The translations under genes and the position numbers were made by a program. From Candidatus Omnitrophota bacterium (GTDB lineage: Bacteria > Ratteibacteria > UBA8468 > B48-G9 > DTJG01), in assembly GCA_023484085.1 (NCBI GenBank), contig JAMDAS010000001.1, positions 1 through 64,000 on the forward strand: 64,000 nucleotides of DNA. Direction: 5' to 3'. Positions 34,095 to 53,933 of this stretch are shown here, piece after piece (position 1 is the stretch's first letter; each line of letters starts with the position of its first letter). The notes under the pieces are model-generated. The model saw only the letters and a list, made by a program, of their open reading frames with translations. It did not search any database and had not been told where the DNA came from.

Positions 34095-34117
34095 ATTTTT
34101 CTCCTCACTTGTTCACT

Positions 34118-34208
34118 GTAAATATTCACTAAGACAGTGTTTCCGCCTCAAAGACAATCCACACTTATTTCAAATACTGTTCACTGAGTATTCACTGCAA
34201 ATATTCAC
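34118..34208. repeat. MITE-like repeat copy R6 (C+B modules with TIRs) inserted between nuoM and nuoN
   Basis: gtaaatattcactaagacagtgtttccgcctcaaagacaatccacacttatttcaaatactgttcactgagtattcac; abuts nuoM stop codon. Confidence 0.85.
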
Positions 34209-35785: not shown

Positions 35786-35802
35786 AAATTGTCCTTATAA
35801 GG

Positions 35803-37701
35803 TTAATGTATTTTTGTCATCAGAAACCCAAGCAGCAGGATCCCGCCGATAAGAATAATGAGCGCATAGTTTCTTAAGTATCCTGTATGTATTTTTCTCC
35901 ATTGCTCACTATTGGTTTTTATCCATTTGCCTGTTTCATTTACGGCTCCGTCAATATATTTAGCGTCAAATACGTCTGCAAAAAAGGATGACAGTTTCCT
36001 GCCGGGCAAAACAAAAATCCGTTCATAAATCTCATCCACAAAATACTTGTTCAGCAATAGTTTGTATAACCCGGCGGCTTTTTTCTTCATACTTTCCGGC
36101 AGGGAAGGATTAACAAGATAAAAATACCATGCTGTAGCAATACCACCCAGGGAGAAAACAAGGGAAACCATTATGGTCTTCAGTTCAACGTTTGAAGACA
36201 ACACTGCAGTTCCCAGGAAAACAGGGGAAAGAAACCTGTGGATGAGATTTGATTCAGGCAGTCCCACGTATCCACCGATAATTGCAAGGAGTGCAAGTAT
36301 AATCAGAGGAAACGTCATAATTTTGGGGGATTCATGGGGATGGCTTTCCTTCTGCTTATCACCCCAGAAAACAATGAAAATCATTCTGAATATGTAGAAT
36401 GAGGTTAAAGCAGCAGTAATGATTCCCAGTCCCCATAAGAATTTTCCATAATACGGTGTCACGTAAGCGTGTGCCAGGATATCATCCTTACTGAAAAAAC
36501 CTGCGGTTCCAGGGAACCCGGACAATGACAGAGCACCTATAACCATCGTCCAGAAGGTTACGGGAAGATATTTTCTTAATCCGCTTAATTTCCGCAGGTC
36601 AGTTTCTCCTGCACTTGCATGCATGATACTGCCTGCGCACAAAAATAACAGTGCCTTGAAAAACGCATGTGACATAAGGTGAAAAATCCCGGCAGAATAT
36701 GCTGCGACTCCAACGCCAAGGAACATATATCCAAGCTGACTGATTGTGGAATAAGCCAATATTCTTTTAATGTCAAACTGGACCATGCCTATTGAGGCTG
36801 AATAAAAAGCGGTTATGATTCCGACAAAAGCGACCACTCCCATGGAAACAGGTGATAACTGATACAGGACATGTGTTCTTGCAACCATGTATACGCCTGC
36901 GGTTACCATAGTAGCCGCGTGTATAAGAGCTGAAACAGGCGTAGGACCTTCCATGGCATCAGGAAGCCATACGTACAGAGGCAGCTGTGCGGATTTTCCG
37001 ACTGCACCCATAAAAAGCAGAAGGGTTATGGCAGTAGCTATGCCACTGCCATGGCTGAGAATAAGGGGAGCGTTGGAAAATACAACATTATAGTTAAGAC
37101 TTTTAAAGGTATGATATATAAGTAAAATACCCAGCAGAAACCCGAAATCACCTATTCTGTTTATGATGAAGGCTTTTCTTCCTGCATCCGCGGCGGATTT
37201 TTTATGGAACCAGAATCCTATCAAAAGGTATGAACACAACCCGACGCCCTCCCATCCCATGAACAGGAGAAGAAAATTGTCCGCCAAAACAAGGAGCAGC
37301 ATTGATGCAACAAAAAGATTAAGATACGAAAAATAACGGGAGAAATGTTCTTCATCCTTCATGTAGCCTATTGAATACAGGTGGATTACAAAACTTACGC
37401 TGCTGACCACCATTATCATCAGCAGAGACAACGGGTCAACGTAAAACCCGAAATTTACCAAAAAATGTCCTACCGGAACCCACTGGAAAAATACCTTGTC
37501 AAAGAACCTGAGGTCCGGCGGCAGTTTAATAAGACTAAAAAACGTAAACACCGAGATTACAAAGGAAAGTCCCACGGAACAACTGGCAATAATACCTGCC
37601 AGAGGTTTTTTGAGCCATTTGCCGGCAATACCCACAAACAATGACCCAAAAACAGGAAACAGGACTACAAACAATACAGAATTAAGTAATGTGGAATTCA
37701 T
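35803..37701 (-). CDS. nuoL: NADH-quinone oxidoreductase subunit L
   Basis: 632 aa antiporter-like subunit with long C-terminal amphipathic helix region. Confidence 0.85.
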   Translation of the reverse strand: MNSTLLNSVLFVVLFPVFGSLFVGIAGKWLKKPLAGIIASCSVGLSFVISVFTFFSLIKLPPDLRFFDKVFFQWVPVGHFLVNFGFYVDPLSLLMIMVVSSVSFVIHLYSIGYMKDEEHFSRYFSYLNLFVASMLLLVLADNFLLLFMGWEGVGLCSYLLIGFWFHKKSAADAGRKAFIINRIGDFGFLLGILLIYHTFKSLNYNVVFSNAPLILSHGSGIATAITLLLFMGAVGKSAQLPLYVWLPDAMEGPTPVSALIHAATMVTAGVYMVARTHVLYQLSPVSMGVVAFVGIITAFYSASIGMVQFDIKRILAYSTISQLGYMFLGVGVAAYSAGIFHLMSHAFFKALLFLCAGSIMHASAGETDLRKLSGLRKYLPVTFWTMVIGALSLSGFPGTAGFFSKDDILAHAYVTPYYGKFLWGLGIITAALTSFYIFRMIFIVFWGDKQKESHPHESPKIMTFPLIILALLAIIGGYVGLPESNLIHRFLSPVFLGTAVLSSNVELKTIMVSLVFSLGGIATAWYFYLVNPSLPESMKKKAAGLYKLLLNKYFVDEIYERIFVLPGRKLSSFFADVFDAKYIDGAVNETGKWIKTNSEQWRKIHTGYLRNYALIILIGGILLLGFLMTKIH

Positions 37702-37703
37702 AT

Positions 37704-38006
37704 TTATCCTTTAAGAACGTTCATGTCATCCACGTCCATACTTTCTTTTTTATGAAATATGCTGATTATTATCGCAAGCCCGACTATCACTTCTGCAGCA
37801 GCCACAGTGATGCTGAAAAAAACGTATACCTGTCCCTTTGGAAGCATCATATATCTTGCAAAAGAGACAAAAGCAAGGTTAACTGCATTCAGCATAATTT
37901 CAACAGACATTAACATTACAAGAACGTTTTTCCTTACTAAAACCCCGCTTGTCCCTATGACAAAAAGAACCCCGCTCAACACCAGATAAAGTTTTATAGG
38001 TATCAT
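37704..38006 (-). CDS. nuoK: NADH-quinone oxidoreductase subunit K
   Basis: 100 aa, three TM helices. Confidence 0.85.
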   Translation of the reverse strand: MIPIKLYLVLSGVLFVIGTSGVLVRKNVLVMLMSVEIMLNAVNLAFVSFARYMMLPKGQVYVFFSITVAAAEVIVGLAIIISIFHKKESMDVDDMNVLKG

Positions 38007-38509
38007 TGCTCTGACCTCCTGAGGTACACAGCACCTATTATCGCCACAAGAAGAATCAAAGAGGTAATTTCAAACGGAACAAGGTACCTCTTAAATAAGA
38101 GCTGTCCAAGACTGACAATCCCACCGAAATTCTCAAACGAAAGAGACGAAGGGCTTTTCCCTGCACTTGCATACAAACCACAAGACAGGACATATACAAG
38201 TTCAAACAGGAATATCAAAAGCAACGGCATAATGAGAAATTTCTGGAAAGACATTTTACCGAAGCGGTTTTCCACTACAGGCGGCATCATCATTATTACG
38301 AACAAAAAAAGAACCATTACGGCACCTGCATAAATGAGTACCTGGACAACTGCAAGAAACTCCGAATGCAGTGTCAGATAAATAAGGGAAAGAACGACAA
38401 GATTAGCAATAAAATAAAGAGCGCTGTAAACCGGTCGTTTCTCCACTACAACCGCGATTGCCGTAAAAACCGACAGAATGCCGAGAATTAAAAATATTAT
38501 CAGTCCCAT
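38003..38509 (-). CDS. nuoJ: NADH-quinone oxidoreductase subunit J
   Basis: 168 aa membrane subunit, operon position. Confidence 0.8.
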
Positions 38510-39021
38510 GGGTATTTTTTATCCATTTCACCCGGCTCTTTTTCCAGGAGCATCTCTTTGGTATAGATTAGCCTGTCCCTGTCATATTCTGACAATTCAT
38601 ATTCAGGGCACATGTTAAGCGCAAAGGTCGGGCATGCCTCCACGCAAAGTCCGCAAAAGATACATCTTATCATGTTTATTTCGTATACCATGGCATATCT
38701 TTCACCTTTTGAATATCTTGCTTTTTCCGTGTTTTCACCGGCTTCAACGTAGATTGCCTCTGCAGGACACGCCACCGCGCACAAGGAACATCCCACACAT
38801 TTTTCCAATCCATCCTCATGTCTTGCAAGCCAGTGTCTTCCATGAAATCTGCGATAAAGCTTCCTTCTTTTTTCCGGGTACTGATAAGTCACCTTCTTTT
38901 TAAATATGTATCCGAAGGTAACCCTGAACCCTTTCAGAAAGTTTATTATGTCCCGGATTATATTATCATTGCTCCTGTTATTAGTATCCATATTAAAGAA
39001 AATGGTAAAAGAACCTTCCAC
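38500..39021 (-). CDS. nuoI: NADH-quinone oxidoreductase subunit I (2x[4Fe-4S])
   Basis: [12 protein letters not shown] and [12 protein letters not shown] motifs; true start may be the internal MDTNN (38991). Confidence 0.85.
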
Positions 39022-39950
39022 TGAAACATCATTAATTTGTCATATCTTAACCTGGGATAAGTAGCCCTGAGCCAGATAAAGAAAAACAACATTGCAGCAA
39101 CCTTCAGCAGGAACCATATAAACGGCGGGAAAAAAGAAGGTCCAAGCCAGCCGCCAAAGAATAAGGTAACCGCTAATGCACTGAAGGTAATCATACTTGC
39201 ATATTCAGCCATAAAAAACATTGCAAATTTAAAACTGCTGTATTCTGTGTGATACCCTGCAACCAATTCTGTCTCTGCCTCAGGGAAATCAAACGGAGCC
39301 CTGTTTGTTTCCGCAATGCTGCTTATTAAAAACACGATGAAAGCCGGGAACTGCATAAGTATGAACCAATGTCTGCTTTGTGCCGCAACGATACTCCTGA
39401 GACTCAAAGAATGACTGAGCAGCAGCACTCCAACCATGGACAGGCCCAGTGGCAACTCATAGCTTATCATCTGGGCACAGCTTCGCATTCCTCCAAAGAA
39501 CGAATACTTGGAGTTGGAAGACCATCCTGCCAATACAATTCCGTAAACGTTGATTGCAAATATTGCAAGAAGATAAAGTACCCCCACGTTCAGGTTGGTA
39601 ATCTGGAGAGGAATCCGGACATTGTGAATGATGAGATCTCTTCCAAATGGTATTATGGCAAATGCCATAAAAGCTGTAAACACTGAAATACAGGGCGCAA
39701 GAATGAAAAGAAACCTGTCAGCTCCTGCAGGCGTAAGGTCTTCTTTCAGAAAAAGTTTGGTTATGTCAGCAAAAGGCTGAAGGAGTCCTATGGGTCCTAC
39801 CCTGTTGGGCCCAATTCTTGACTGCATAAAAGCAATAAGCTTACGTTCTGCATAAATTAAAAATGCAATGGTTAAAAGCAGTCCTATAAAGACCAGAAGT
39901 ATCAGAATTATTTTCGCAACCAACCATATAATAAAAACTTCTTTTGGCAT
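38958..39950 (-). CDS. nuoH: NADH-quinone oxidoreductase subunit H
   Basis: 330 aa; NuoH/ND1 family. Confidence 0.85.
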
Positions 39951-39951
39951 G

Positions 39952-42369
39952 TTATTCCTTTCTAATGTCCACTTCTACAAAACCCTCTTCCGAATCTTTT
40001 AAAATGTTTAGAGGACAGGCTATATCATCAGTCATAACCGCGTACCCCGGCTGAACGTCTTTCATGGTAGAAACCATGACCTTCAACTCCCCGAGGTTAT
40101 TGAATACCGTTACAGCATCGCCATCCATTAGACCGGATTTTTCTGCATCAGAAGGACTTATGCATACCCCGGGTTTAAAGAAAAACTTAATGGCGCCACA
40201 GCGGGAAATAAATTTGTCTCTGGCAAACATGTTTTTCCCTTCAACAAGGACAAATGGAAATTTCCCGGGCTTTTCAAAAATCCGTACAGGCAGAAATTTT
40301 TCCCTGCAGGAATCTTTTTTCTGCAGTACAGAAAGCATCTCATTTCTCAAGTCATCAATTATATCATACCTCATTGAATAACCCAGTCTTTCAGCGAGCC
40401 GTGTTATGGTTTTCCATTCACTTTCCATCCCTTCCTTTATTCCTTCCTGAAGTTCCCGGGTAAGTCCGCCGGAACATATAAAACTGCCTTGTTTGGCATG
40501 AGGTGCTTTTCCGGGAAGAACTATGCTGGCATATTGAGCGGCTTCAGTCAGAAAAACATCCTGTGCCACAATGAATTCAACGTTCTTAAGAACTGCTCCC
40601 ATTTTTTTTCTGTCCAAAAACTCAGATACAGGGTCAGAACCCAATAAATAAAGAAACTTCAATTTCCCTGATAAAGCAGCGTCAATAATTTTTCTGGCAT
40701 TACAACTTTCCGGCATTAATTTCATCGCACCCCTGTGATTGGGCTGTGAAAAAACCGGCAGAACTTTTGACTTTACCCTGCCTTTTTGGACATTATTCAA
40801 AGCCATACCAAGGTTGTGGGCAGAAAACAAAAGGGATTCTTTCTCCCCATCAATTATGATTGTCCACCCCTCTTTATCCAAAAGCAAAGACGAAACTTTT
40901 TCCATGGTTTCTTTTGTAACCCCTGTAGTCTGCTCCACGGCTTCCATGGTAATTTCTTTAAAGGAGTTCCTGAATTCTTCAAAGCCTTCAATGCGTGAGA
41001 GATCTTCCCTGTTTTCAGGATTCAGCATGCAAAGTATAAGACCATAGAGCAGATATGCTTCTGTCCCTGGTCTGTAGCAAACAGATAAAGATGCACAATC
41101 CTCCATTCCTGTTTTATACGGTTCTGCAAGAAGAAGAGTTGAGCCTTTCCTCTTTGCACGGTTACGCAGGTAAAGGCCAAGAACCGGCTGCTGGTGCAGA
41201 ATGTTTGTCCCCAATACAAAAACCCCTCCGGAACCAGGCAGGTCTGAATATTCCGCACTTTCATCCAAAATGGCATTAACCTGACCGCTGTCAGAAAATC
41301 TGCTCCTGAAATCAACATTTGGTGAACCAATACAGTCTTTAAAAAGTTTTTTAAAAAGGTATATTTCCTCGCAGGTAGATGCAGAAGATATGATACCCCC
41401 TACAGAATCCGGACCTGATTCTGCAATACTTTTTTTCAGCCTAAAAACAATCATGTCCATTGCCTTTTCATAAGTGACAGGAATAAATCCATCATTTTGC
41501 TTTATCATCGGTGTTCTGACCCGCTCTCCTGAAGAAAGATACTCAAAATCAAACTGACCCCTGTCGCACAAAAAATTATTAAGAATTCCATGATTACTAT
41601 TATTACTACAATTATTATTTCTGTCAGGGGTAATCCTCAATATTCTGTTGTTTCTTGACCAAAGCCTGATACTGCAACCGGTCCCGCAGCCAGGGCATAC
41701 AGAGGTTATGAATTTCATATCCCAAACCCTTGCCTTGAATCTATAAACCTTGTCTGTAAGAGCGCCGACAGGACAAAGAAAAATGGTGTTACCGGAAAAC
41801 CCGGGGTTGAATTCAGTTTTGTAAAAAGTTCTTATGTCGGTTTCTGCAGCTCTGTTAAACTCTCCAAGCGTGGTTTCACCGCCATATTCATCATAGAACC
41901 TTACGCATCTTTTACATAGGATGCACCTGTTCATTTCTCTTTCCACCAGGGGACCTATGTAATACTTCTGAAAGGTTCTCTTATGCTCTTTGAATTTGGC
42001 TACTGCGGGCCCGTATCTATGAGAAAAATTCTGAAGGTCGCATTCTCCACCCTGGTCGCATACAGGACAATCAAGAGGATGGTTGGCAAGTAAGAATCCA
42101 ATAACCCCCTTTCTTCTTTTTTGCACCAATGGAGTATTGGTTCTTACAACCATTCCGTTTTTAACCTCAAGCGTGCACGACGTCTGAAGCTTGGGAATGC
42201 CCTCAACTTCCACAAGGCATACCCTGCAGCATCCAACCGATTTCAAGAGAGGGTGGTAGCAATAATAGGGAATCTCTATCCCCAATTTTTTTGCTGCCTC
42301 AATTACCATTGTCCCTTCCTGTACGGTTACTTCCCTTCCATCAATTGTCAGTGTGATTGCATTTCCCAT
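39952..42369 (-). CDS. nuoG: NADH-quinone oxidoreductase subunit G
   Basis: N-terminal 2Fe-2S/4Fe-4S cysteine clusters (CYHPLLKSVGCCRVC, HPLDCPVCDQGGEC) and molybdopterin-oxidoreductase-like C-terminal region; 805 aa. Confidence 0.85.
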   Translation of the reverse strand: MGNAITLTIDGREVTVQEGTMVIEAAKKLGIEIPYYCYHPLLKSVGCCRVCLVEVEGIPKLQTSCTLEVKNGMVVRTNTPLVQKRRKGVIGFLLANHPLDCPVCDQGGECDLQNFSHRYGPAVAKFKEHKRTFQKYYIGPLVEREMNRCILCKRCVRFYDEYGGETTLGEFNRAAETDIRTFYKTEFNPGFSGNTIFLCPVGALTDKVYRFKARVWDMKFITSVCPGCGTGCSIRLWSRNNRILRITPDRNNNCSNNSNHGILNNFLCDRGQFDFEYLSSGERVRTPMIKQNDGFIPVTYEKAMDMIVFRLKKSIAESGPDSVGGIISSASTCEEIYLFKKLFKDCIGSPNVDFRSRFSDSGQVNAILDESAEYSDLPGSGGVFVLGTNILHQQPVLGLYLRNRAKRKGSTLLLAEPYKTGMEDCASLSVCYRPGTEAYLLYGLILCMLNPENREDLSRIEGFEEFRNSFKEITMEAVEQTTGVTKETMEKVSSLLLDKEGWTIIIDGEKESLLFSAHNLGMALNNVQKGRVKSKVLPVFSQPNHRGAMKLMPESCNARKIIDAALSGKLKFLYLLGSDPVSEFLDRKKMGAVLKNVEFIVAQDVFLTEAAQYASIVLPGKAPHAKQGSFICSGGLTRELQEGIKEGMESEWKTITRLAERLGYSMRYDIIDDLRNEMLSVLQKKDSCREKFLPVRIFEKPGKFPFVLVEGKNMFARDKFISRCGAIKFFFKPGVCISPSDAEKSGLMDGDAVTVFNNLGELKVMVSTMKDVQPGYAVMTDDIACPLNILKDSEEGFVEVDIRKE

Positions 42370-43606
42370 TTATGTGTTCCTCGTATTCTTTTCTGAAATA
42401 TTTTATACTGCTTACAACCGGCATAGTTGCAGCATCCCCAAGAGGACAAAAGGTTGTCCCGTAAATATCGTGGGATATGCTTAGAAGAAGGTCTATGTCT
42501 CCATCTCTTCCCTTGTTGTCCATAATCCGTTTATAAACCTTTGCCAGCCAGTCTGTCCCTTCCCTGCATGGACTGCATTTTCCACAGGATTCATCCCTAT
42601 AAAACTTCACCAATCTCGCCGCTGTTTTTACCATGCACCTGTCTTCATTCAAGACTATTACTGCACCTGAACCAAGCATAGACCCTGCTTTTTTAAGCGA
42701 TTCAAAATCCATTTCAATGTTTAAATGAGCATCAGTGAGTATAGGTGTGGATGAGCCTCCAGGAAAAAAGGCTTTCAATTTTTTGCCATCCTTTATTCCA
42801 TCAGCCATTTTTAGTAATTCTTTAAATGATATTCCCATAGGAGTTTCATAAACTCCCGGTTTATTCACGTCCCCGCTTATGCAGAAAATTTTTGTGCCTG
42901 TGCTATGTGGAGTTCCAATACCTGCAAACCATTCAGCACCATTGTCTATTATGCGCGGAATGTTTGCCAGAGTCTCTACGTTATTTATCATGGTAGGTGA
43001 AGCGTAAAGCCCGACAACTACAGGAAAAGGAGGCTTGAGTCTGGGCATGCCTCTTCTTCCTTCAAGAGAATCAAGAAGAGCCGTCTCTTCACCGCATATG
43101 TAGGCTCCTGCACCCCTGAAAACATCAATGTCAATGTCAAGCCCTGACCCGAGAACGTTTTTACCGAGAAACCCCGCCTCCCTTGCCTGGTTGATTGCAC
43201 TGACAAGAATATCCGCGCCCATGGCAAACTCACCTCTTATGTATATGTATGCCTTATGTGCGCCAATTGCATAGCTTGAAATAGCCATCCCCTCAATCAA
43301 TAAATGCGGGTCACCCTCTATAATTGCCCTGTCTTTAAACGTCCCCGGTTCACCCTCATCAGCATTGCATACAAGATATTTAGGTTTAGGTGAGGTTTTT
43401 GGTATAAAACCCCATTTCTTACCCGTAGGAAAACCTGCCCCACCTCTTCCTCTTAATCCTGATTTATCAACTAATTGAATTATCTCATCAGGTTTATATT
43501 CAGAAAGTGCACGCGGCAAGGCTTTATATCCACCATTCTTCATATATGTCCCAATATTTTTCTGTTCAGGTACGTCTGCATATTTCAAAACTATTTTTTC
43601 ACTCAT
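42341..43606 (-). CDS. nuoF: NADH-quinone oxidoreductase subunit F
   Basis: GRGGAGFPTGKKW FMN/NADH site; C-terminal ESCGKCSPCREG 4Fe-4S motif. Confidence 0.9.
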   Translation of the reverse strand: MSEKIVLKYADVPEQKNIGTYMKNGGYKALPRALSEYKPDEIIQLVDKSGLRGRGGAGFPTGKKWGFIPKTSPKPKYLVCNADEGEPGTFKDRAIIEGDPHLLIEGMAISSYAIGAHKAYIYIRGEFAMGADILVSAINQAREAGFLGKNVLGSGLDIDIDVFRGAGAYICGEETALLDSLEGRRGMPRLKPPFPVVVGLYASPTMINNVETLANIPRIIDNGAEWFAGIGTPHSTGTKIFCISGDVNKPGVYETPMGISFKELLKMADGIKDGKKLKAFFPGGSSTPILTDAHLNIEMDFESLKKAGSMLGSGAVIVLNEDRCMVKTAARLVKFYRDESCGKCSPCREGTDWLAKVYKRIMDNKGRDGDIDLLLSISHDIYGTTFCPLGDAATMPVVSSIKYFRKEYEEHINGKCNHTDN

Positions 43607-43620
43607 AATATCCTTAAAAA

Positions 43621-43664
43621 CAACCCAAACTTATTTTTTACTTTAGTTCCGTATAAATATTCAT
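43621..43664. repeat. Truncated repeat fragment R7 between nuoF and nuoE
   Basis: caacccaaacttatttttta…gtataaatattcat. Confidence 0.5.
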
Positions 43665-43681
43665 TATATTGAAATTTAATA

Positions 43682-44161
43682 TTATTGTTTCTCCATCTCC
43701 GATATAATCTTTTCCATTTTTTCGTTTGTCATATTCTCGTAATAGGTATTATTTATCTGCACCACAGGTGCGCCGCCGCAGGCACCGAGACATTCAACGG
43801 TCCGTAGTGCAAATTTACCATCAACTGTTATCTGCCCTTCTTTAATATTCAGTCTGTTTTCCAAAAAAGTGATAATTTTCTCTGCTCCGTGAAGTCCGCA
43901 TGATACATTAGAACACACATAAATCATGTATTGGGCAGAAGGGCTGGTATTGAACATGCCATAAAATGACAACACTGACCCTATCTCAGTAGAACTCAAC
44001 CCCAGAACATCTGCAACCGTTTCCACGTTTTCCTTTGATATGTATCCGTATTTTTTCTGAACAAACTGCAACATCGGTAAAATTGCAGACCTTGGAGTAT
44101 TATATCTTTTCAGAATGCCCTGAAAATCTTTTTCAAGTAAGGTATTTATGCTGTTTTCCAT
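43682..44161 (-). CDS. nuoE: NADH-quinone oxidoreductase subunit E
   Basis: Thioredoxin-like 2Fe-2S subunit (CSNVSCGLHGAE…CLGACGGAPV). Confidence 0.85.
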   Translation of the reverse strand: MENSINTLLEKDFQGILKRYNTPRSAILPMLQFVQKKYGYISKENVETVADVLGLSSTEIGSVLSFYGMFNTSPSAQYMIYVCSNVSCGLHGAEKIITFLENRLNIKEGQITVDGKFALRTVECLGACGGAPVVQINNTYYENMTNEKMEKIISEMEKQ

Positions 44162-45369
44162 TATCTATCTACATCCCCCAACACTATGTCTATACTGGCA
44201 ATTACCGCTATCACGTCCGATATCATTATTCCTTTTAACATTAAAGGTAATGCCTGCAAATTTGCAAAAGAAGGAGTTCTGACCTTTAATCTATATGGCT
44301 TATTCCCGCCATCACTCACAAGGTAAAATCCCAGTTCACCCCTTGCGGATTCCACAGCAACGTACGTTTCTCCTTCAGGGACAGGAAACCCGGCACTGAC
44401 TATCTTAAAATGGTGTATCATCTCCTCCATCCCAAGTTCCGCATTTCTTTTCGGTGGAAGAATAATGTCCGGTCTGTCAACAACGTTAACAGGACCTGAT
44501 GGAAGATTTTTGACTGCCTGTGAAATAATTCTTAAACTCTGGCGCATTTCCTCCATTCTCACCAAATACCTGTCGTACACGTCGCCATGAGTTCCCACCG
44601 GAACGTCAAATTCAAAAAGCTCATACCCTGAGTAAGGATGCGCAGTCCGGATATCCCACTTAACACCACTTGCCCTGAGAAGAGGTCCGCTTACCCCGAA
44701 ATTGATTGCATCCTCTGCAGAAAGAACCCCTAATCCCACGGTTCTTTCCTTCCAGATTATATTTTTCGTCAAAAGGGTTTCATATTCATTTATCTTTGAT
44801 GGGAATACGTTAATAAAATTTTTTAATCGGTCTATAAATCCATCAGGGAAATCCAGGTAAAATCCGCCCACTCTCATATAACCTGAATTCATCCTGTATC
44901 CTGAACACATTTCAAAAAGTTCAAGTATAAGTTCTCTTTCCCTGAAAGTATAAAGCATTACACTCATGGCTCCTAATTCAAGCGCATGGGTTCCCAGCCA
45001 TACAAGATGGCTTGCAATTCTCTGAAGCTCGCAAAGTATAATCCTCATAAACTTTACGCGCTCAGGCACCTCAATGCCAAGAAGCTTTTCAACGGCAAGA
45101 ATATATCCAATTTCATTAAAAAAACAGGACAGGTAATCCATCCTGTCCACTATGGTGATTGCCTGGACGTATCTTTCAGACTCAATGGTCTTTTCCATTC
45201 CTGTATGAAGATAGCCAATCACCGTATTTGAATTTACAACAATTTCACCATCCAGCTCCAGAACAACCCGCAAAACCCCGTGCGTACTGGGATGTTGGGG
45301 TCCCACATTCAATATCATTGTATCTCTTTCAGTCTCTGTATTTACCATGGTCTGTCCTGTTTGGTCCAT
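44161..45369 (-). CDS. nuoD: NADH-quinone oxidoreductase subunit D
   Basis: 402 aa NiFe-hydrogenase large-subunit-like 49-kDa subunit. Confidence 0.9.
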
Positions 45370-45827
45370 TTGGCAGGTATAAAACCCTTCAAAGGATAAT
45401 CTTTACGCAAAGGGTATCCTGTCCAATCATCCGGCATCAAAATACGCTTCATAGCAGGATGCCCTGAAAATTTTATTCCATACATGTCAAAAACCTCTCT
45501 TTCAAACCAGTTTGCACCCCTCCATACAGATGATACGGATGGAACAGAATGGTTTTCCGGAACGAGCACCTTAAGCGTAAGCCTGTTTTTATTTTTCATT
45601 GAATAAACGTGATATACCACTGCAAATCTCGGTTCTTTTCCTAAATAATCAACACCGGATATGCCAGAGATATAATCATATGCAAGATCTTCATCGTCAT
45701 GCAGGAACCGGCACACATTTACTATGTCCCCGGGGTTTACCAGCACTGTCGTCTCATTTCTGCATGTTTTTACTTCAAGAACTGCGTCAGAACATTTTTC
45801 TTTGAGTTTTTCTGTCAGATTATTCAT
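45342..45827 (-). CDS. nuoC: NADH-quinone oxidoreductase subunit C
   Basis: 161 aa 30-kDa subunit, separate from nuoD. Confidence 0.85.
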
Positions 45828-46300
45828 ATTCTTAGTTTTTCCCTGTCAATCTTTTGTTGCAGTTTCATAACCCCCTGAAGCAGAAGCTCCGGTCTTGGAG
45901 GACATCCAGGAACATAAACGTCAACAGGTACTATTTCATCAACACCCTGAACCACAGCATAATTTTTAAAAACACCGCCACATGAGGCACAGGCACCCAT
46001 TGCAATAACCCATTTTGGTTCCGCCATCTGATCGTATAACTGCCGTAGAACAGGTGCCATTTTGCGGGAAACCCTGCCCGCCACTATCATCAGGTCTGAC
46101 TGTCGCGGTGAGCCCCTGAACACTTCTGACCCAAACCGGGCTATGTCATGATGGGAAGCTGAGGTTGCCATCATTTCTATGGCGCAGCATGCCAATCCGA
46201 ATGTCATAGGCCAAATAGAGGACCTACGCGCCCAGTTGGTAATCTTTGTCAGACTGGTCAGAATGATACGATTGCTTATTAAAAACTCTTTTTCTCCCAC
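45824..46300 (-). CDS. nuoB: NADH-quinone oxidoreductase subunit B
   Basis: CCAIEMM … GACASCGG … PGCPP cluster N2 motifs. Confidence 0.9.
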
Positions 46301-46647
46301 TCAAATCCTCCACGTTTCAGAACGTATAGATACCCTGCAAGAAGAACCAAAATAAAAATAACCATTTCCACGTAACCTGGAACCCCGAGCTTTTTAAACA
46401 CCACTGCCCAGGGATAAACAAATACCAATTCCACGTCAAATACGACAAACAGCATAGCAACAGGATAAAACTTTATGGGGAATCTTTTCCTTGCAACGTC
46501 TTCAGGTATTATTCCACACTCGTAGGGAACAGATTTCGCCGCACCCGGGTTTTTAGGCCCGATAAAATTTGATAAAACCACCGACGTAAGAATAAAAAAA
46601 CCTACGAGCGCCGCCAAAATGAATAATGGTAAATAGATATAAATCAT
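46279..46647 (-). CDS. nuoA: NADH-quinone oxidoreductase subunit A
   Basis: 122 aa, three TM helices, first gene of operon. Confidence 0.85.
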
Positions 46648-46653
46648 GGACGT

Positions 46654-47397
46654 TTAAGTATTTTGTAAAATTTCAACATTTGTATTCCCACTCTTTGGAT
46701 TTGCAATAAAAGAAACAAGCAGACTTACACCATATAAAAAAAACATAGGTATTGCCATCATAAACATACTGAACATATCAGGTGATGGCGCTAATATGGC
46801 AGCCACAATAAAAATACCAACAATAGCATATCTGATTTTGCCTGTCAAAAATTTCCAGTTTAACATGCCGAACTTTGTCAAAAAGAAACTCAGGACAGGC
46901 ATCTGGAATATTATCCCCCCGGCTATAAGTGTGCCTACAACAAAAGAAATATAACTTGCAGCGGAAATCATGGGTGTTAGCTGAGTCCCTCCCAATAGCA
47001 ATAAAAATTTAAGTCCTGCAGGCAGAACCAGCAAAAAGATAAATGCCATTCCTGCTAAAAATAACAGTGTTGCAAAAAGGACAAAGATTACAATGTATTT
47101 TTGGGTTTTTCTTTCCATGGCAGGAGCAATAAATTCCCATACCTGAAACATAATTACAGGAAGAGAAATTACCAGACCCGTAAGAATGGATATCCGAAGA
47201 TAAACAAGAAAAGCATCCTGCGGGCTGAAAAATACAAAGTTATGTATAATTCCCTTGCATGGCAATTCCAGGAATCCAAAAACGTCCTTACTGAAAGGGA
47301 AAGATACAACAATCCCTATACCAACAAATATCAGGCATACTATAAGCCTGTATCTCAATTCGACAATGTGCTCCCACAAAGACATTTCCTTATACAT
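46654..47397 (-). CDS. tatC: Sec-independent protein translocase TatC
   Basis: 247 aa six-TM TatC family (…LWEHIVELRYRLI…). Confidence 0.8.
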   Translation of the reverse strand: MYKEMSLWEHIVELRYRLIVCLIFVGIGIVVSFPFSKDVFGFLELPCKGIIHNFVFFSPQDAFLVYLRISILTGLVISLPVIMFQVWEFIAPAMERKTQKYIVIFVLFATLLFLAGMAFIFLLVLPAGLKFLLLLGGTQLTPMISAASYISFVVGTLIAGGIIFQMPVLSFFLTKFGMLNWKFLTGKIRYAIVGIFIVAAILAPSPDMFSMFMMAIPMFFLYGVSLLVSFIANPKSGNTNVEILQNT

Positions 47398-47432
47398 TTT
47401 TACTCAGGTATCTGAAATTCTGACATTACAAG

Positions 47433-47545
47433 CACTACCTGTGCATACTCTCCGCCTTCTTTGGAAAGACAACTACCTGTATGGTAAAAACAGGCGTCGT
47501 GGTGAATTATAAAGCAGTAAAGAGAAATCCAGAACTTATCTCTTA
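47433..47545. repeat. Repeat copy R11 (inverted orientation; ~90-bp hairpin-rich module also found inside R8)
   Basis: cactacctgtgcatactctccgccttctttggaaag…cctgtatggtaaaaacaggcgtcgtggtgaattataaagcag…agaacttatctc is reverse complement of 49631-49745 with few mismatches. Confidence 0.75.
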
Positions 47546-47600
47546 CTTTGAGTATGGCATAAATAAATCTCTATGTCAGAATTTCATTCAGGTATAGAAA

Positions 47601-47813
47601 CTATTTACTTTTTTTATTTTCTTTATCTTTTTCTGAAGATTCATCTTCATCATTATCCTGTGTAAATTCCTTTTGGGATTCTTTCATACCTTTTTTAAAT
47701 TCACCCAATGCCTTTCCAAGAGAACGGCCTACTTCAGGTAAACGGTTTGCACCAAAAAGAATAAGAATAATAAGCAGTATAAACAGAATTTCGGGCATAC
47801 CTAAATCAAACAT
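47601..47813 (-). CDS. tatA: Twin-arginine translocase TatA/E family protein
   Basis: 70 aa, N-terminal TM helix + FG hinge + amphipathic helix (ILFILLIILILFGANRLPEVGRSLGKA). Confidence 0.85.
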   Translation of the reverse strand: MFDLGMPEILFILLIILILFGANRLPEVGRSLGKALGEFKKGMKESQKEFTQDNDEDESSEKDKENKKSK

Positions 47814-47895
47814 TGTAACTACCTCCTATCAGCAATTCATCTTCATTCGTCTAAATATCCGGGCCGGATTCCAACCATAGATATTATATTAAATT

Positions 47896-48495
47896 TTATT
47901 TAAGAAATAAAGCCCAATATAAAGCAACTGCTTTTTTAACAGCAAATGCAGCGGAAGATGATGAAATAGTAGCGCCGCTTACCGAATCAATATCCTTTCC
48001 AACTTCAATTGGACTTTTAATGTTTTTCCCGATAAACTGTTTCAGCCAGACCTTGTTTGCAATGGGTCTGCCCCATTGTTCCCTATATTTCATAACCACA
48101 ACTCTTTTCACTGACCCATCAGGATTTAGACCTATCATAAATGTGTTCTGTCCCCATCTTCCCGGTTCAACGTCTATAAGAGCCACACCTACTTCTTTTC
48201 CATCCCTGGTTCCTTTATAAAATGTAAAGGTAGTTGTAGGTTCTACCCCCCAATTTTCTCCTACAGGAGATTTGTATACTAATCTATCTCCTAATTTTCT
48301 TTCAACCTCACGTTTTTCTTCATGACTAACTAATTTTTTCACTATAGGTGTTATTTGCACTCCGGTTCCCAGCACCATTTGCAATGCCTGGTCTTGTGTA
48401 GCGAGTGTCTGGTAAGCGTTTGCCTGACTTGTTAAAAATAAAACACCCGCTCCTGCTGCTGCCAATAATAATAGCTTTTTACTCATTCTACACAT
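47896..48495 (-). CDS. Exported FMN-binding domain protein (ApbE substrate-type)
   Basis: Signal peptide; C-terminal DSVSGATISS flavinylation motif (S/T-G-A-T/S) of FMN_bind domains. Confidence 0.6.
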   Translation of the reverse strand: MCRMSKKLLLLAAAGAGVLFLTSQANAYQTLATQDQALQMVLGTGVQITPIVKKLVSHEEKREVERKLGDRLVYKSPVGENWGVEPTTTFTFYKGTRDGKEVGVALIDVEPGRWGQNTFMIGLNPDGSVKRVVVMKYREQWGRPIANKVWLKQFIGKNIKSPIEVGKDIDSVSGATISSSSAAFAVKKAVALYWALFLK

Positions 48496-48526
48496 TTTTT
48501 TGTTCCTCCTTTTTATTTGGACTTTC

Positions 48527-49588
48527 TTAGTTTGTGGTTCCTGATTTTTTTCCGCGTGTTTCCAAATCTTTTTTTAGACCCGGGCTGGTCCATAATTTCC
48601 CGGATTCCGTTATAATGATAGCCTGTATCTCTGGCTCTTTCTTTAATGCTTTCAAACCATTTTGGGGCCCCATAACAAAAAGAGTAGTCCCCCATGCATC
48701 AGTTAATGCTGCTCCTGGTCCGATAGCTGTTGTCCCTATAACGCCATGGGCAGGCCAGCCTGTTTTAGGATTAAAGATATGACTATACCTTTTGCCATTA
48801 TAAAAAAAATAATGTTCATAATCACCCGAAGAAGCAACATACAGGTCTTCTATTTTCATATATCCCAAAAGACCTTTACCCCGTGGTGATTTAATTCCAA
48901 CAACCCACATTTTTTTATTGTCTTTTCCTAATGCATATATATCCCCGCCACCATTAATCAAAGCAGATTTTATTCCATTTGCTTTTAATACTTTTACAGC
49001 CTGGCCAACAGCATAACCTTTTGTAAGAGCCCCCAAATCTATTTCAATACTCTTTTTATCCTTAATCAGTGCCCCATTATGAATCCTTAAATGCCACCAG
49101 CCAACATATTTAAGGGCTTTTCTTATGTTTTTTTCAGAAGGGACATGTGGATGTTCTGTATCAAAACCCCAGAGTGCAACCAGAGGGTGTATTGTAATAT
49201 CAAATGCTCCTCCTGATTCTTTGCTAATCTTTATTGCTTCTTTTACTACATGAAGAATATCCGGATTAGTAATTGGTGTTCCATAGTGATTAAATTTATA
49301 AACAGGACTTTTGGGATTTTCCGGGTTCATTTCATTTCCTATCTCTTCCATCCTGTCCATTGCTAAATTAATAGCATGGTCCGTAATCTTTTTATTCGGA
49401 CCATATGCAGATATAATTATATATGTATACATCATATAGCGCATTTCTTTATACAGGTGTTCTACACTACCATTTTGTTCATGCACTATAGATTGATGAT
49501 TTGTGTTATTCTCACCCCATACAACGTTTATTGAACACATCAACATAAAAATTAGTATTCCAGCAAAAACTTTATTTTTCATAAGCAT
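48527..49588 (-). CDS. apbE: FAD:protein FMN transferase (ApbE family)
   Basis: 353 aa ApbE family, signal peptide, adjacent to FMN-binding domain substrate gene. Confidence 0.75.
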   Translation of the reverse strand: MLMKNKVFAGILIFMLMCSINVVWGENNTNHQSIVHEQNGSVEHLYKEMRYMMYTYIIISAYGPNKKITDHAINLAMDRMEEIGNEMNPENPKSPVYKFNHYGTPITNPDILHVVKEAIKISKESGGAFDITIHPLVALWGFDTEHPHVPSEKNIRKALKYVGWWHLRIHNGALIKDKKSIEIDLGALTKGYAVGQAVKVLKANGIKSALINGGGDIYALGKDNKKMWVVGIKSPRGKGLLGYMKIEDLYVASSGDYEHYFFYNGKRYSHIFNPKTGWPAHGVIGTTAIGPGAALTDAWGTTLFVMGPQNGLKALKKEPEIQAIIITESGKLWTSPGLKKDLETRGKKSGTTN

Positions 49589-51498: not shown

Positions 51499-52356
51499 CT
51501 ATTTTATATAGCTGAAACTTAAAATAAATAAAGTGATCAGATAAACAGCAACAGACATGTTTATCACCGGAAGAAAATAATTTTTATTTTCATAATTTTT
51601 ATTCAGGGGGAATAAATTTTTCCAGAGCCATGGAATTATTGAAAACAGGATAACGGCAAACAACGGTATTTTTTTTAATACCAGCCCCAATCCAAGAAAT
51701 AAAAAAATAGAAATAAAACATATATTTATAATTCCGGTTATTTTTTGTTTCCCCATTTTTACCACTAAATTTCTTTTTCCTATCAGCTTATCCTGGTAGT
51801 AATCCGGAATCTCATTGAGAAGAGCCAAACAAAAAACAAATAGTCCGCAAATCAATGATGGCAATAATGGCTCTATGTTAATAGACTTTGTCTGGATATA
51901 ATAACTGCCATATACCATAAAAGGGCCATAAGATAATGCGATTACTGTCTCACCTAATCCCCGATATGCCCACCGTATAGGTGGACCCACATAAAAATAA
52001 GCCCCTAAAAATCCAAATAAAATAAAAAGAATAACAGGCCAGCCAACCTGAAAAGACAGGTAAATGCCGATAAAAGAGGCAAGCATAAAAACAAAAACAC
52101 CAAGCCGAAAAAAATAACGCGGAATCTCTTTCTTTTCAAGAGAAAATACACGGTCTCCTCCGGATTGAGAATCAAAATATTCATTAAACAACTCTACACC
52201 AACAAGCGTAAAAAAAATGCCCAGCAGGCCCAGCCAGAAGTAATTTTTAATTATCAGTCCTTTTGTATGGAAAGCTAATGATTGGCCTAAAAGATATGGA
52301 AGTAATCCCGCCCACAGGAAAAAACGGTATCTTATTAATGAAACAATTCTACCCAT
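51499..52356 (-). CDS. UbiA-superfamily membrane prenyltransferase, MenA-like Asp-rich motifs
   Basis: 285 aa, ~8 TM helices; first motif NEYFDSQSGGD (N[DE]YxDxxxGxD as in MenA), second motif NEIPDYYQD. 22-nt overlap with upstream radical SAM gene. Confidence 0.7.
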   Translation of the reverse strand: MGRIVSLIRYRFFLWAGLLPYLLGQSLAFHTKGLIIKNYFWLGLLGIFFTLVGVELFNEYFDSQSGGDRVFSLEKKEIPRYFFRLGVFVFMLASFIGIYLSFQVGWPVILFILFGFLGAYFYVGPPIRWAYRGLGETVIALSYGPFMVYGSYYIQTKSINIEPLLPSLICGLFVFCLALLNEIPDYYQDKLIGKRNLVVKMGKQKITGIINICFISIFLFLGLGLVLKKIPLFAVILFSIIPWLWKNLFPLNKNYENKNYFLPVINMSVAVYLITLFILSFSYIK

Positions 52357-53291
52357 TTATTTGATTCTGCCAAAAGTTTCGGCTCTTTGATAAGTCTGTC
52401 TATAAATTCCTGGACCTGGGGTTTCTGCCAGCTTATTTTGTAATTTTCCCACACCTGCTTTAATGTCTGTTTTTTCAAATTTCCGCAAACAAATGGCAGT
52501 GGTCCGATTAGTTTTACTTTTCCATTTGGTATTACAAGAAGACTGGCAGCAGGAGACATACGACGATATTTCAGTTCCTCTAAAACATCATAGGGATAGA
52601 AATAAACCTTCATTTTCCCATCATATTGTTTAAGTTTTTCATTTAAAGTGGTAAAAAACTCTTTATACTCTTCATCTGACGGGCAAAGTATGTCCCAATT
52701 TTGGGCTGCACGGCCAATCCTCATTATTTTCCCCGTATATATTCCATATACGCCAAGTGAATAGGCAAAATCTATTATCTGACCTATTTCATGGATGTTA
52801 AATTTAGTCGGTACAAACACAATCTCAGTATTGACACCTTTGGACTTCAATAATTTACAGGCATTCGTTGCCTTATTCCAGTTTCCACCCAATCTTAACT
52901 TCTCATGGGCAACCGACGTAGCACCGTCTAAACTTATCTGGACAGAACGAAGATTAAGCGAAGCAAATCGTTCTGCTTTTTTCTCATCAATATACTCACC
53001 ATTAGTTTCTATTTTAAGGTCTATTGAATTTTTTCTTAAGAATTCACACATTTCAAAAATATAAGGATGAAGTAATGGTTCGCCACCGGAAAAAGCTACG
53101 TATGGAATCTTTAGAGCAACAATCTGCTCTAAAACTTTAAAAGTTTCATCCCTTGATAACTTATCAGGCATACTATGTCCTGCCTCTTCACAGCAGTGCA
53201 GGCATCCAAGATTACATTCTGCATTTATCTGCCATGCAATAAATAATGGTGCCTCCAAATCATTAATATTTATTATATTGTTTTTATCCAT
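52335..53291 (-). CDS. Radical SAM enzyme (PqqE/AhbD/NirJ-like core) with Cys-poor SPASM-like C-terminal tail
   Basis: IAWQINAECNLGCLHC (CxxxCxxC); GGEPLL; C-terminal VIPNGKVKLIGPLPFVCGNLKKQTLKQVWEN matches SPASM terminal motif (…PCxx…GNxxxxSLxEIW) but only 2 downstream Cys. Confidence 0.75.
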   Translation of the reverse strand: MDKNNIININDLEAPLFIAWQINAECNLGCLHCCEEAGHSMPDKLSRDETFKVLEQIVALKIPYVAFSGGEPLLHPYIFEMCEFLRKNSIDLKIETNGEYIDEKKAERFASLNLRSVQISLDGATSVAHEKLRLGGNWNKATNACKLLKSKGVNTEIVFVPTKFNIHEIGQIIDFAYSLGVYGIYTGKIMRIGRAAQNWDILCPSDEEYKEFFTTLNEKLKQYDGKMKVYFYPYDVLEELKYRRMSPAASLLVIPNGKVKLIGPLPFVCGNLKKQTLKQVWENYKISWQKPQVQEFIDRLIKEPKLLAESNKWVELFH

Positions 53292-53330: not shown

Positions 53331-53582
53331 TCAGACTTCTATCAGAGAATTGTTTTTAAGGCTATCAATAAATGACAGGATGTCATTCTGTATCTCTGCA
53401 GGTTCTTTATTATATAAATCACTTAAAGACCGGACAATATTTTCAGAAGAATAACCCTGTTGAAGTAAATCCACAATGTCTTTACCTGTTTCATTGGTTA
53501 CAAATACTTTTTCTTTTAATGTATCAAAAATCACCTCACCGAATTTTTCATCTCTGGTTTTTACAAATTTTTTTAGTTTCAT
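53331..53582 (-). CDS. PqqD-family protein (RiPP recognition element)
   Basis: 83 aa; VTNETGKDIVDLLQQGYSSENIVRSLSDLYNKEPAEIQNDILSFIDSLKNNSLIE fits PqqD/RRE winged-helix pattern. Confidence 0.7.
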   Translation of the reverse strand: MKLKKFVKTRDEKFGEVIFDTLKEKVFVTNETGKDIVDLLQQGYSSENIVRSLSDLYNKEPAEIQNDILSFIDSLKNNSLIEV

Positions 53583-53604: not shown

Positions 53605-53666
53605 TACAGACACTAAGGCACAAAGGAAAAATTGAAATATCTTTAAACTCTGAGCCTTTGTGCCTT
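53605..53666 (-). other. 12-bp-stem hairpin (aaggcacaaagg / cctttgtgcctt) between precursor peptide gene and pqqD-like gene
   Basis: Perfect 12-bp inverted repeat with 38-nt loop; no U tract after it; related hairpin module also occurs in repeat R5. Confidence 0.4.
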
Positions 53667-53694: not shown

Positions 53695-53820
53695 TTATGT
53701 AAATCTGATATATGGCTGCGCCATTATTTTTTCTGAAACATCTTCTAATTCAGGCTTTTTCCATTCATGCTTTTGATTTTCCTGCTTTTGCATATTTTTC
53801 TTTTCAACAAATTTTTTCAT
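53695..53820 (-). CDS. Candidate precursor peptide (41 aa), PqqA-like core
   Basis: Not in ORF track (short). Perfect SD AGGAGG 5 nt upstream of ATG. Translation MKKFVEKKNMQKQENQKHEWKKPELEDVSEKIMAQPYIRFT. WKKP motif and W-to-Y spacing of 17 residues, same as PqqA (WKKPAF…EVTLY). First gene of the PqqD/rSAM/prenyltransferase operon. Confidence 0.55.
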   Translation of the reverse strand: MKKFVEKKNMQKQENQKHEWKKPELEDVSEKIMAQPYIRFT

Positions 53821-53933
53821 TTAATCCTCCTGTTATATTCAAAAAAATAAAAATTTATAAAGTTGATAAATCTACTAATATATATTTTATAACCATTTTT
53901 ATTTTTGTCAAAATTATTTCAGCCAGCCGGTTA

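Follow-up and report, generated by a model that had tools for sequence, protein, structure and literature searches.

A 41-residue ORF in Omnitrophota and its conserved linkage to PqqD, radical SAM and UbiA-family genes

Introduction

What is made from a 41-codon open reading frame (ORF) that stands upstream of genes for a PqqD-family protein, a radical S-adenosylmethionine (radical SAM) enzyme and a UbiA-family prenyltransferase? The ORF in question (53695..53820, minus strand; 41 amino acids (aa) plus stop; translation MKKFVEKKNMQKQENQKHEWKKPELEDVSEKIMAQPYIRFT) belongs to a stretch of 64,000 nucleotides (nt) of a Candidatus Omnitrophota bacterium (GenBank assembly GCA_023484085.1, contig JAMDAS010000001.1, positions 1 to 64,000), hereafter the window. 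A preliminary description, made from the sequence, had presented it as a PqqA-like peptide, i.e., a relative of the precursor of pyrroloquinoline quinone (PQQ), and as the strongest candidate substrate of the radical SAM enzyme encoded downstream. The ORF reads as described there, including the AGGAGG Shine-Dalgarno sequence (53826..53831, minus) 5 nt before the ATG. It had also been reported as missed by the ORF track, which is correct insofar as it falls under the length cut-off, but it is recovered when the minimum length is set to 30 aa, and the gene callers of other assemblies do annotate it, the source records naming it a "hypothetical protein".

PQQ and mycofactocin, which are to our knowledge the only redox cofactors established as deriving from a ribosomal peptide, are each recognised by a tiny, strongly conserved ORF beside genes for PqqD and radical SAM proteins. 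Our favoured explanation, which we consider probable, is that the present ORF is the ribosomal precursor peptide of an undescribed, deeply conserved cassette (peptide, PqqD, radical SAM enzyme and MenA-like UbiA polyprenyltransferase) making a membrane-bound product.

Conservation and Synteny of the Peptide Gene

A 41-codon ORF means little by itself, and it is conservation and synteny that take the present one beyond chance. A word-indexed search returned 46 homologous small proteins (34–60 aa) with a variable N-terminus and an invariant C-terminus, while an exhaustive profile search of 1.84 billion representative proteins yielded 94 representative clusters, all short, 81 of which end exactly in MAQPYIRFT, i.e., the last nine residues of the window peptide. 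Invariance rests here on profile hidden Markov model (HMM) and exhaustive library searches, which also brought out rare natural variants among the 94 clusters: Y37F (four), M33T/I (three), Q35R and T41S (one case each). At the nucleotide level, no two of the 55 peptide-gene sequences compared are alike, and the invariant residues are written with two to five synonymous codons (four each for P, V, S, A and T; five for R, both AGR and CGN), so that selection must act on the protein, not on the DNA or RNA. A Shine-Dalgarno match (≥4 nt, spacing 4–11 nt) lies ahead of 45 of 54 homologous ORFs, and the median peptide length over these 54 copies is 48 aa.

Family loci were fetched by alignment of the radical SAM enzyme alone, hence independently of the peptide, which was sought in them by a profile-HMM scan of all six frames. 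Among the 65 loci obtained (57–87% identity), 54 carry the peptide, every copy (54/54) ending in MAQPYIRFT. Eight of the 11 remaining loci begin at or inside the pqqD or radical SAM gene and thus miss upstream DNA, which leaves 57 evaluable loci (54/57); the other three (L007, L033 and L036) are without an adjacent copy. Of the 80 metagenome loci fetched in the reverse direction, by the peptide alone, 50 extend at least 1 kb downstream, and 48 of these hold the radical SAM gene; PqqD is present in 54 of 65, and UbiA in 33 of the 36 that reach at least 2.2 kb. When the genes of 66 loci (the 65 fetched plus the window) were clustered, UbiA was found in 63 and PqqD in 58, and UbiA directly follows the radical SAM gene in 63/66, the two genes often overlapping, across phyla in which all other neighbours differ. 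Conservation in syntenic loci, on which the preliminary description had staked its reading, is thus clearly present.

Altogether, the peptide gene is confirmed as real, far beyond chance; the peptide is under strong protein-level selection and stays linked to three enzymes whether the loci are fetched by it or by the radical SAM gene, the conserved unit being peptide, PqqD, radical SAM enzyme and MenA-like UbiA polyprenyltransferase. Its core is moreover the most conserved element of this cassette, the last nine residues being 100% identical, against median identities to the window proteins of 44% for PqqD, 65% for the radical SAM enzyme and 46% for UbiA. Given the co-occurrence in both directions, the proposal that the peptide is the substrate of the downstream radical SAM enzyme is very probably right.

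The labels of the radical SAM loci span at least 12 phylum labels, with Omnitrophota, Planctomycetota (including Phycisphaerae, Sedimentisphaerales, Pirellulales and Brocadiaceae), Elusimicrobia, Lentisphaerae, Acidobacteriota, Aminicenantia, Calditrichaceae, Thermodesulfobacteriota, Nitrospirota, Nitrospinota, Armatimonadota and Hydrogenedentota. The carriers are, without exception, metagenome-assembled genomes (MAGs) or metagenome contigs, and the labels Hadarchaeota, Ktedonobacter and Gammaproteobacteria may be binning errors.

Gene content and order vary in some loci. Tandem radical SAM paralogues occur in L036, L042, L046 and L048, and in a GC-rich sub-family, whose core reads ...EQV[M/T]AQPYIRFT, the genes are rearranged to radical SAM–UbiA–radical SAM–peptide–radical SAM (L133:1036-5088). 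In a MAG labelled Hadarchaeota (L028:2495-2602), the peptide is encoded on the opposite strand, downstream of UbiA, with at most 10 leader residues before the Trp, a minimal, PqqA-sized form which suggests that the long basic leader of other homologues is dispensable. L078:2284-2577 has tandem peptide genes 5' of PqqD–radical SAM–UbiA, one canonical and one with a diverged tail (...IMAKPYFYLRG), and a proline dehydrogenase gene 3' of the cassette. Finally, two peptide genes are solitary, with no PqqD, radical SAM or UbiA gene within 4 kb (L095:4001-4108 and L097:4001-4090), the former preceded by NuoE/F-like and ferredoxin genes and followed by a gene for a HemN-like radical SAM protein.

A short ORF at the head of an operon might also yield a small protein that is not modified at all, or a leader peptide that regulates the genes behind it through its own translation. 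In the window, the ORF does stand behind a promoter-like site, a sigma-70-like candidate (TTGACA–16 nt–TAAAAT, 11 of 12 consensus matches; 53884..53911, minus) whose −10 hexamer ends about 63 nt 5' of the ATG; this is a consensus match only, in AT-rich DNA, and such sites are no commoner in the region than in shuffled sequence. Likewise, a stem-loop with a 12-bp stem (53615..53666, minus; z = −2.3) lies between the peptide stop codon and pqqD. Considered as a conserved attenuator or processing site, it was rejected: a comparably stable structure exists in just 29% of the homologous loci, which makes it an optional feature. Regulatory leaders, for their part, do not keep every residue from phylum to phylum while their codons turn over so heavily; the peptide carries the PqqA-type docking motif described below, and in L028- and L133-type loci the peptide lies on the other strand or downstream of the enzymes. 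With the hairpin missing from most loci as well, control by a leader peptide, or an unmodified small protein, is to us highly implausible. An Rfam/tRNA scan of the window found nothing overlapping the peptide site, its single Rfam/ARAGORN match being a tRNA-Met (CAT anticodon, 874-946, minus).

Comparison with PqqA

The peptide can be divided into three parts. Residues 1–19 (53764..53820, minus) form a basic leader of which neither the sequence nor the length is conserved in homologues; it contains six Lys, in agreement with the lysine-rich leader of the preliminary description; homologue leaders have a median of 26 aa ahead of the Trp, 31% K+R and a net charge of +4. Cysteine pairs (CGC, CC, CxC) were observed in the otherwise variable leaders of L027, L032, L034, L038, L043 and L053, which belong to several non-Omnitrophota lineages. 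Residues W20–S29 (WKKPELEDVS; 53734..53763, minus) make up the putative docking motif for PqqD, i.e., for its RiPP recognition element (RRE; RiPP, ribosomally synthesised and post-translationally modified peptide), and are the sole part resembling PqqA; in homologues, W and P never vary, and L, E, D, V and S hardly do. The core, E30–T41 (53698..53733, minus), ends in MAQPYIRFT.

The likeness to PqqA had first been seen in a WKKP…Y core with 17 residues from W20 to Y37, and this spacing holds: Klebsiella PqqA, whose sequence was confirmed (100% to annotated pqqA), has the same W-to-Y offset and likewise four residues after the Tyr. Against an alignment of six annotated PqqA peptides from plasmid records, hhalign aligned 11 columns only (W-x-K-P-x-L-E-D-V-S with W-x-x-P-A-F-x-D-L-R; probability 30%, P = 5.6e-4). 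In an ungapped column-permutation test, none of the 20,000 permutations scored as high as the first 10 residues (p < 5e-5), while the last 12, including the Tyr, did not stand out (p = 0.20). The N-terminal stretch W-x-K-P-x-(L/F)-x-D-(V/L) therefore resembles PqqA well beyond chance, and the earlier comparison stands for this half of the peptide but not for its C-terminal half. The W-x-K-P-x-L-E-D-V stretch is most probably a PqqD-docking motif, so that what had been called the core is more probably the part recognised by the chaperone, the truly invariant core being MAQPYIRFT. The one other weak match of the peptide, over residues 17–26 to a lasso-peptide leader model, would fit a generic RRE-binding motif. 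As judged from the sequences, PqqA and the new peptide have in common the docking motif and the spacing from motif to aromatic residue, not the reactive core.

Indeed, the conserved Glu at Y−4 of PqqA is replaced by M33, as already noted in the preliminary description, and this residue is an almost invariant Met in the family (88/94 clusters, with Thr or Ile in three). The accompanying suggestion that E30 (Y−7) or E26 (Y−11) is available instead does not survive comparison, E30 being Gly in most homologues and E26 not invariant; no Glu is invariant at any fixed offset among homologues, while the real PqqA alignment has both Glu and Tyr invariant. The TIGR02107 (PqqA) model, against which alignment had been advised, gives no match to the peptide at E ≤ 1, a PDB search with the peptide profile returned no PqqA chain, and the exhaustive search brought up nothing PqqA-like among its 94 relatives. 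Membership of PqqA is therefore rejected: there is no curated-model match, the profile–profile match covers the docking motif only, and the Glu–Tyr pair is missing.

The four representative clusters with Phe for Tyr form a coherent clade located in the same cassette. A link between the Phe variant and loss of UbiA, which would have hinted at prenylation of the phenol, was considered and rejected: L075, with a peptide–PqqD–radical SAM trio lacking UbiA, fits it, but L076 retains a full-length UbiA. In L075:2588-4200, the radical SAM gene is followed, where UbiA is expected, by genes for a Peripla_BP_2 periplasmic binding protein and a FecCD permease. The radical SAM enzymes of all four Phe-variant loci (L074, L075, L076 and L077) have Leu at the position of Cys34, a residue kept in 57/59 members of the Tyr family; this Leu/Phe pairing may be a peptide–enzyme co-variation, with phylogeny as a confounder, all four loci belonging to one clade.

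The hypothesis of a true PqqA-type precursor, in which the radical SAM enzyme links a Glu to Tyr37 as PqqE does, to give PQQ or a close PQQ-like o-quinone, thus has on its side the W-x-x-P-x-F/L-x-D-L/V motif, the offset of 17, the four residues after the Tyr, the PqqD-family neighbour and the fact that PqqE is the second-best structural match to the radical SAM enzyme. To the lack of a TIGR02107 match, the Met at Y−4, the inconstant E30 and E26, the Phe-for-Tyr clade and the C-terminal permutation result must be added that the radical SAM enzyme scores 79 bits on the PqqE model TIGR02109 (cut-off 381) and has no SPASM cysteines, and that PqqB and PqqC were found neither among the annotated window genes between 29 and 64 kb nor in the clusters of recurrent genes from the 65 loci. 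Furthermore, the carriers are anaerobes, while the later steps of PQQ biosynthesis require O2. We consider this hypothesis very unlikely. At the level of the whole system, both operons start with the gene of a very short ribosomal peptide; common to both are also a separate PqqD-family chaperone, a radical SAM enzyme of the same structural lineage, an aromatic residue 17 after the Trp and four before the C-terminus, and the conservation style of a cofactor precursor. The present system differs from PQQ in its core (MAQPYIRFT instead of E-x-x-x-Y, with a Tyr that can be Phe), its long basic leader, its integral membrane polyprenyltransferase and its anaerobic hosts; no PqqA, PqqD or PqqE model is reached at cut-off, and PqqF was not found here either.

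The Partner Proteins

The PqqD-family peptide chaperone (RRE) has 83 aa (53331..53582, minus) and matches PF05402 above the gathering score (E = 8.7e-12), while remaining below the cut-off of every NCBIfam PqqD equivalog. The radical SAM enzyme (318 aa; 52335..53291, minus) has a CxxxCxxC motif and a SPASM-like C-terminal fold, and matches PF04055 above the gathering threshold; its best NCBIfam models (MftC, AhbD, NirJ2, GeoRSP and PqqE) are all far under cut-off. In its predicted structure (mean predicted local distance difference test score of 85), which is a confident model, the nearest solved folds are the peptide maturases SkfB (6efn, E = 8e-15), PqqE and SuiB (5v1q, E = 5e-12), and also BlsE. 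With a short precursor, a PqqD/RRE protein and a CxxxCxxC radical SAM enzyme, the locus has what would be expected of the class of RRE-dependent, radical SAM-modified peptides.

CxxxCxxC is present in 59/59 family members, in which the only other conserved cysteines are the adjacent Cys34 (57/59) and Cys269 (58/59). The SPASM cysteine motif (CxxCx5Cx3C) is absent from all the family members and paralogues examined, and the SPASM Pfam match has E = 0.08. An auxiliary Fe–S cluster ligated by Cys82, 145, 203 and 269 was considered and rejected, each residue being missing in some members and just Cys269 being near-invariant. The enzyme therefore appears to have a fold of the SPASM/Twitch lineage whose auxiliary clusters were lost.

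The gene of the MenA/UBIAD1-like UbiA-family polyprenyltransferase (285 aa; 51499..52356, minus; PF01040, E = 2e-23, 83 bits vs. 34) overlaps the radical SAM gene by 22 nt. Its nearest solved structure is UBIAD1 (8djk), and both catalytic Asp-rich motifs of UbiA are kept across the family (NEYFDxxxGGD and NEIPDYYQDxLVGK), but its scores lie far under every MenA equivalog cut-off (at best 99.9 bits vs. 277 for NF004749; 59 vs. 102 for TIGR00751), so that the UbiA of the cassette is a distinct subfamily. In 17 genome loci, a HepT/IspB-like long-chain polyprenyl-diphosphate synthase is also encoded, usually right behind UbiA. The resemblance to MenA, UBIAD1 or MqnP working with IspB/HepT thus comprises the UbiA fold, the two Asp-rich motifs, the synthase next door and the adjacent quinone-reducing complexes (see below); it ends with the low scores, with the men, mqn and ubi head-group genes, none of which was seen in the loci, and with the genetic fusion to a ribosomal-peptide maturation system, a fusion that we found for no described UbiA-family enzyme in the literature searched.

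At face value, the peptide–PqqD–radical SAM trio and the MenA-like and IspB-like genes could be two separate pathways that are merely co-transcribed, the latter making ordinary menaquinone and the modified peptide serving as a soluble cofactor or assembly factor. MenA and UBIAD1 are, after all, the best family and structure matches of the UbiA protein, and a few loci dissociate the parts: the trio without UbiA in L075, a radical SAM gene followed by IspB without UbiA in L007, the peptide with a HemN-like radical SAM protein in L095. We nonetheless give this possibility only a small chance, owing to the position of UbiA directly behind the radical SAM gene in nearly all clustered loci, often overlapping and across phyla, and to the scores that set it apart from MenA.

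Two further known systems invite comparison. As in the mycofactocin system, where a redox cofactor is made from a peptide with the help of a PqqD-like chaperone and a radical SAM enzyme, an aromatic residue lies near the C-terminus, a later enzyme would add a non-peptide group (a glycosyltransferase there, a prenyltransferase here), and MftC is the top NCBIfam model for the radical SAM enzyme (122 bits, under the cut-off of 265). However, MftA ends in Gly-Val-Tyr, whereas four invariant residues follow the Tyr here (...PYIRFT); MftB reaches 13.4 bits vs. 33; there is no MftD, MftE, MftF or MftG; and the radical SAM enzyme is without auxiliary clusters. The maturases SkfB, SuiB and those of the "triceptides" are the nearest solved folds, and the core contains an aromatic-x-Arg triplet (Y/F-I-R) which resembles the three-residue aromatic-x-X motifs cross-linked by cyclophane-forming maturases. 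These enzymes nevertheless have one or two auxiliary Fe–S clusters and variable products, while the family described here has no such cluster and an invariant core.

An invariant core behind a variable leader is, by analogy, the pattern of cofactor precursors (PqqA, MftA) and not that of antibiotic-type RiPPs. This bears on a further alternative, in which the peptide is an ordinary secreted RiPP, i.e., an antimicrobial or signalling lipopeptide unrelated to respiration, which UbiA just lipidates. A small precursor beside an RRE and a radical SAM enzyme is the standard RiPP signature, some loci have tandem radical SAM paralogues or duplicated and diverged peptide genes, and one Phe-variant locus continues with ABC-transporter components. 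Yet a core identical over at least 12 phylum labels is unlike the evolution of antibiotic or signalling RiPPs, for which conservation would be inverted, and the cassette stands within housekeeping respiratory operons; moreover, among the recurring gene clusters of the fetched loci, the cassette has no conserved transporter or exporter, no immunity gene and no (leader) protease. A secreted RiPP is therefore improbable in our opinion.

Respiratory and Genomic Context

In seven loci from Planctomycetota and some Omnitrophota (L002, L011, L017, L018, L021, L023 and L031), the cassette lies directly 3' of an Nqr/Rnf-type operon with an RnfC-like subunit A, an NqrF-like subunit, and proteins that attain the cut-offs of the NqrC and NqrD models. 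In L045 and L053, both from Brocadiaceae, the cassette stands between nqrE and nqrF, nqrF comes after UbiA in L049, L056 and L057, and in L073 the cassette is behind rnf-like and NuoE/F-like genes. In the window, the genes downstream of the cassette (32670..49588, minus) encode an ApbE flavin transferase, a flavin mononucleotide (FMN)-binding protein, TatA/TatC and a near-complete complex I operon (nuoA–nuoN, with nuoK left out); these identifications are based on Pfam, except for TatA, TatC, nuoA and nuoB, which were identified by eye. As a matter of context, a role in membrane electron transfer is suggested by neighbours such as complex I and the Nqr/Rnf operons.

Some of this adjacency has to be discounted. 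The 270–286-aa members of the "NqrF" BLAST cluster in L004, L010 and L058 adjoin an AsrA-type gene (TIGR02910, 404 bits) and are probably AsrB-like reductase subunits rather than NqrF, which implies that part of the apparent Nqr adjacency consists in reality of anaerobic sulfite-reductase-like genes.

Other neighbours were also observed. A protein of about 150 aa without any Pfam or NCBIfam match is always encoded 3' of the NqrF-like gene in L011, L017, L018, L031, L045, L053 and L056, either between nqrF and the peptide or, if the cassette is inserted in the operon, after nqrF (e.g., L031:6892-7383). In the window, a 444-aa protein encoded between UbiA and ApbE (49941-51275, minus) has an N-terminal coiled coil and a weak Porin_O_P match, and its homologues follow the cassette in the closest relatives, L001 and L071. 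Directly upstream of the peptide promoter region lies the gene of a 334-aa NHL/Vgb-lyase-like beta-propeller (53934-54938, minus) with near-identical repeats of about 40 aa (...GKSIGTYPVGKGP.GIAID..GNVW..N..SNNVTKLS...).

Proposed Mechanism

In the favoured explanation, a precursor peptide matured by PqqD, the radical SAM enzyme and UbiA into a membrane-bound product, the basic and variable N-terminus would either hold the peptide near the membrane or be a mere spacer; its charge (median +4) would help to keep the peptide on the face of the membrane at which UbiA enzymes work. The W-x-K-P-x-L-E-D-V motif would dock on PqqD, a role ascribed to the corresponding stretch of PqqA, and so place the MAQPYIRFT core in the active site of the radical SAM enzyme. 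Residue 37 lies at the distance from the docking motif of the reactive Tyr of PqqA, and this identical spacing suggests that residue 37 or a neighbour is the one at the active site. The enzyme would then abstract a hydrogen from the core and install a modification that needs no auxiliary Fe–S cluster, e.g., a C–C cross-link onto the aromatic ring, an epimerisation with a conserved Cys as hydrogen donor, or a fragmentation. An oxidative Glu–Tyr coupling of the PqqE type is unlikely, because there are no auxiliary clusters and Phe is tolerated in place of Tyr. Finally, the MenA-like enzyme would add a long polyprenyl chain, for which the HepT/IspB-like synthase often encoded next would provide the donor. 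The resulting peptide-derived, membrane-bound product would be either a redox carrier or a lipid-anchored accessory factor, working together with complex I and with complexes of the Nqr/Rnf type. Since nine contiguous residues are invariant, we suspect that a large part of the core peptide survives in the mature product, which would then be more than a small molecule of two residues.

Several points weigh against this explanation. The nature of the modification and of the product, like the site of prenylation, is inferred. Three radical SAM loci have no adjacent peptide and two peptide genes stand alone. A radical SAM enzyme without auxiliary clusters is unusual among the oxidative cross-linking maturases that it most resembles. 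The Tyr-to-Phe clade, of which L076 has UbiA, argues against a tyrosine-derived quinone and against a simple phenol-directed prenylation, and nine contiguous invariant residues exceed what a small-molecule cofactor precursor needs. The MenA-like enzyme could be the ordinary menaquinone prenyltransferase of the cell, merely co-transcribed. Lastly, Nqr/Rnf adjacency concerns about 12–16 of the 65 loci, and the link to respiration comes from context alone.

A more specific and more speculative version, which we regard as possible though rather doubtful, is that the cassette makes a third ribosomal-peptide-derived redox cofactor, polyprenylated, membrane-resident and made from the MAQPYIRFT core. 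Nqr/Rnf-type complexes and complex I would use it as a quinone-like electron acceptor, or depend on it as a lipid-anchored partner, in anaerobic Omnitrophota, Planctomycetota (including anammox bacteria), Elusimicrobia, Lentisphaerae and other hosts without a recognised quinone head-group pathway.

Significance

The peptide is covered by no model of NCBIfam (June 2026) or Pfam; the radical SAM enzyme and the prenyltransferase reach the cut-off of none except the radical SAM and UbiA Pfam domains. Likewise, a full-text literature search returned no description of the system and nothing linking PqqD or RiPP biosynthesis to a UbiA-type or polyprenyl transferase. We judge that the system belongs to the RRE/radical SAM-matured ribosomal peptides of the cofactor-precursor type and was undescribed before. 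Its signature recurs in mostly uncultured anaerobes under at least a dozen phylum labels. Three of its features are unprecedented in the literature searched: an integral MenA-like polyprenyltransferase with a polyprenyl synthase, a radical SAM enzyme of the SPASM lineage minus its auxiliary clusters, and a placement after or inside NADH:quinone oxidoreductase operons.

The system may also connect two published puzzles. According to a 2026 survey, the known bacterial quinone pathways are those of ubiquinone (UQ), rhodoquinone (RQ), menaquinone (MK, two routes), plastoquinone (PQ) and methyl-plastoquinone (mPQ), and many lineages are without any (PMC13386864). A 2023 study of Omnitrophota reported a polyprenyltransferase without chorismate lyase and an incomplete ubiquinone pathway (PMC10066038), i.e., a prenyltransferase without an identified source of head group. 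Even in a conservative reading, the cassette is a large, uncharacterised peptide-maturation family, with four small genes, suitable for expression in E. coli, as a clear experimental handle. If its product is indeed a membrane electron carrier, the way in which respiration is reconstructed from such genomes, those of anammox bacteria included, would change.

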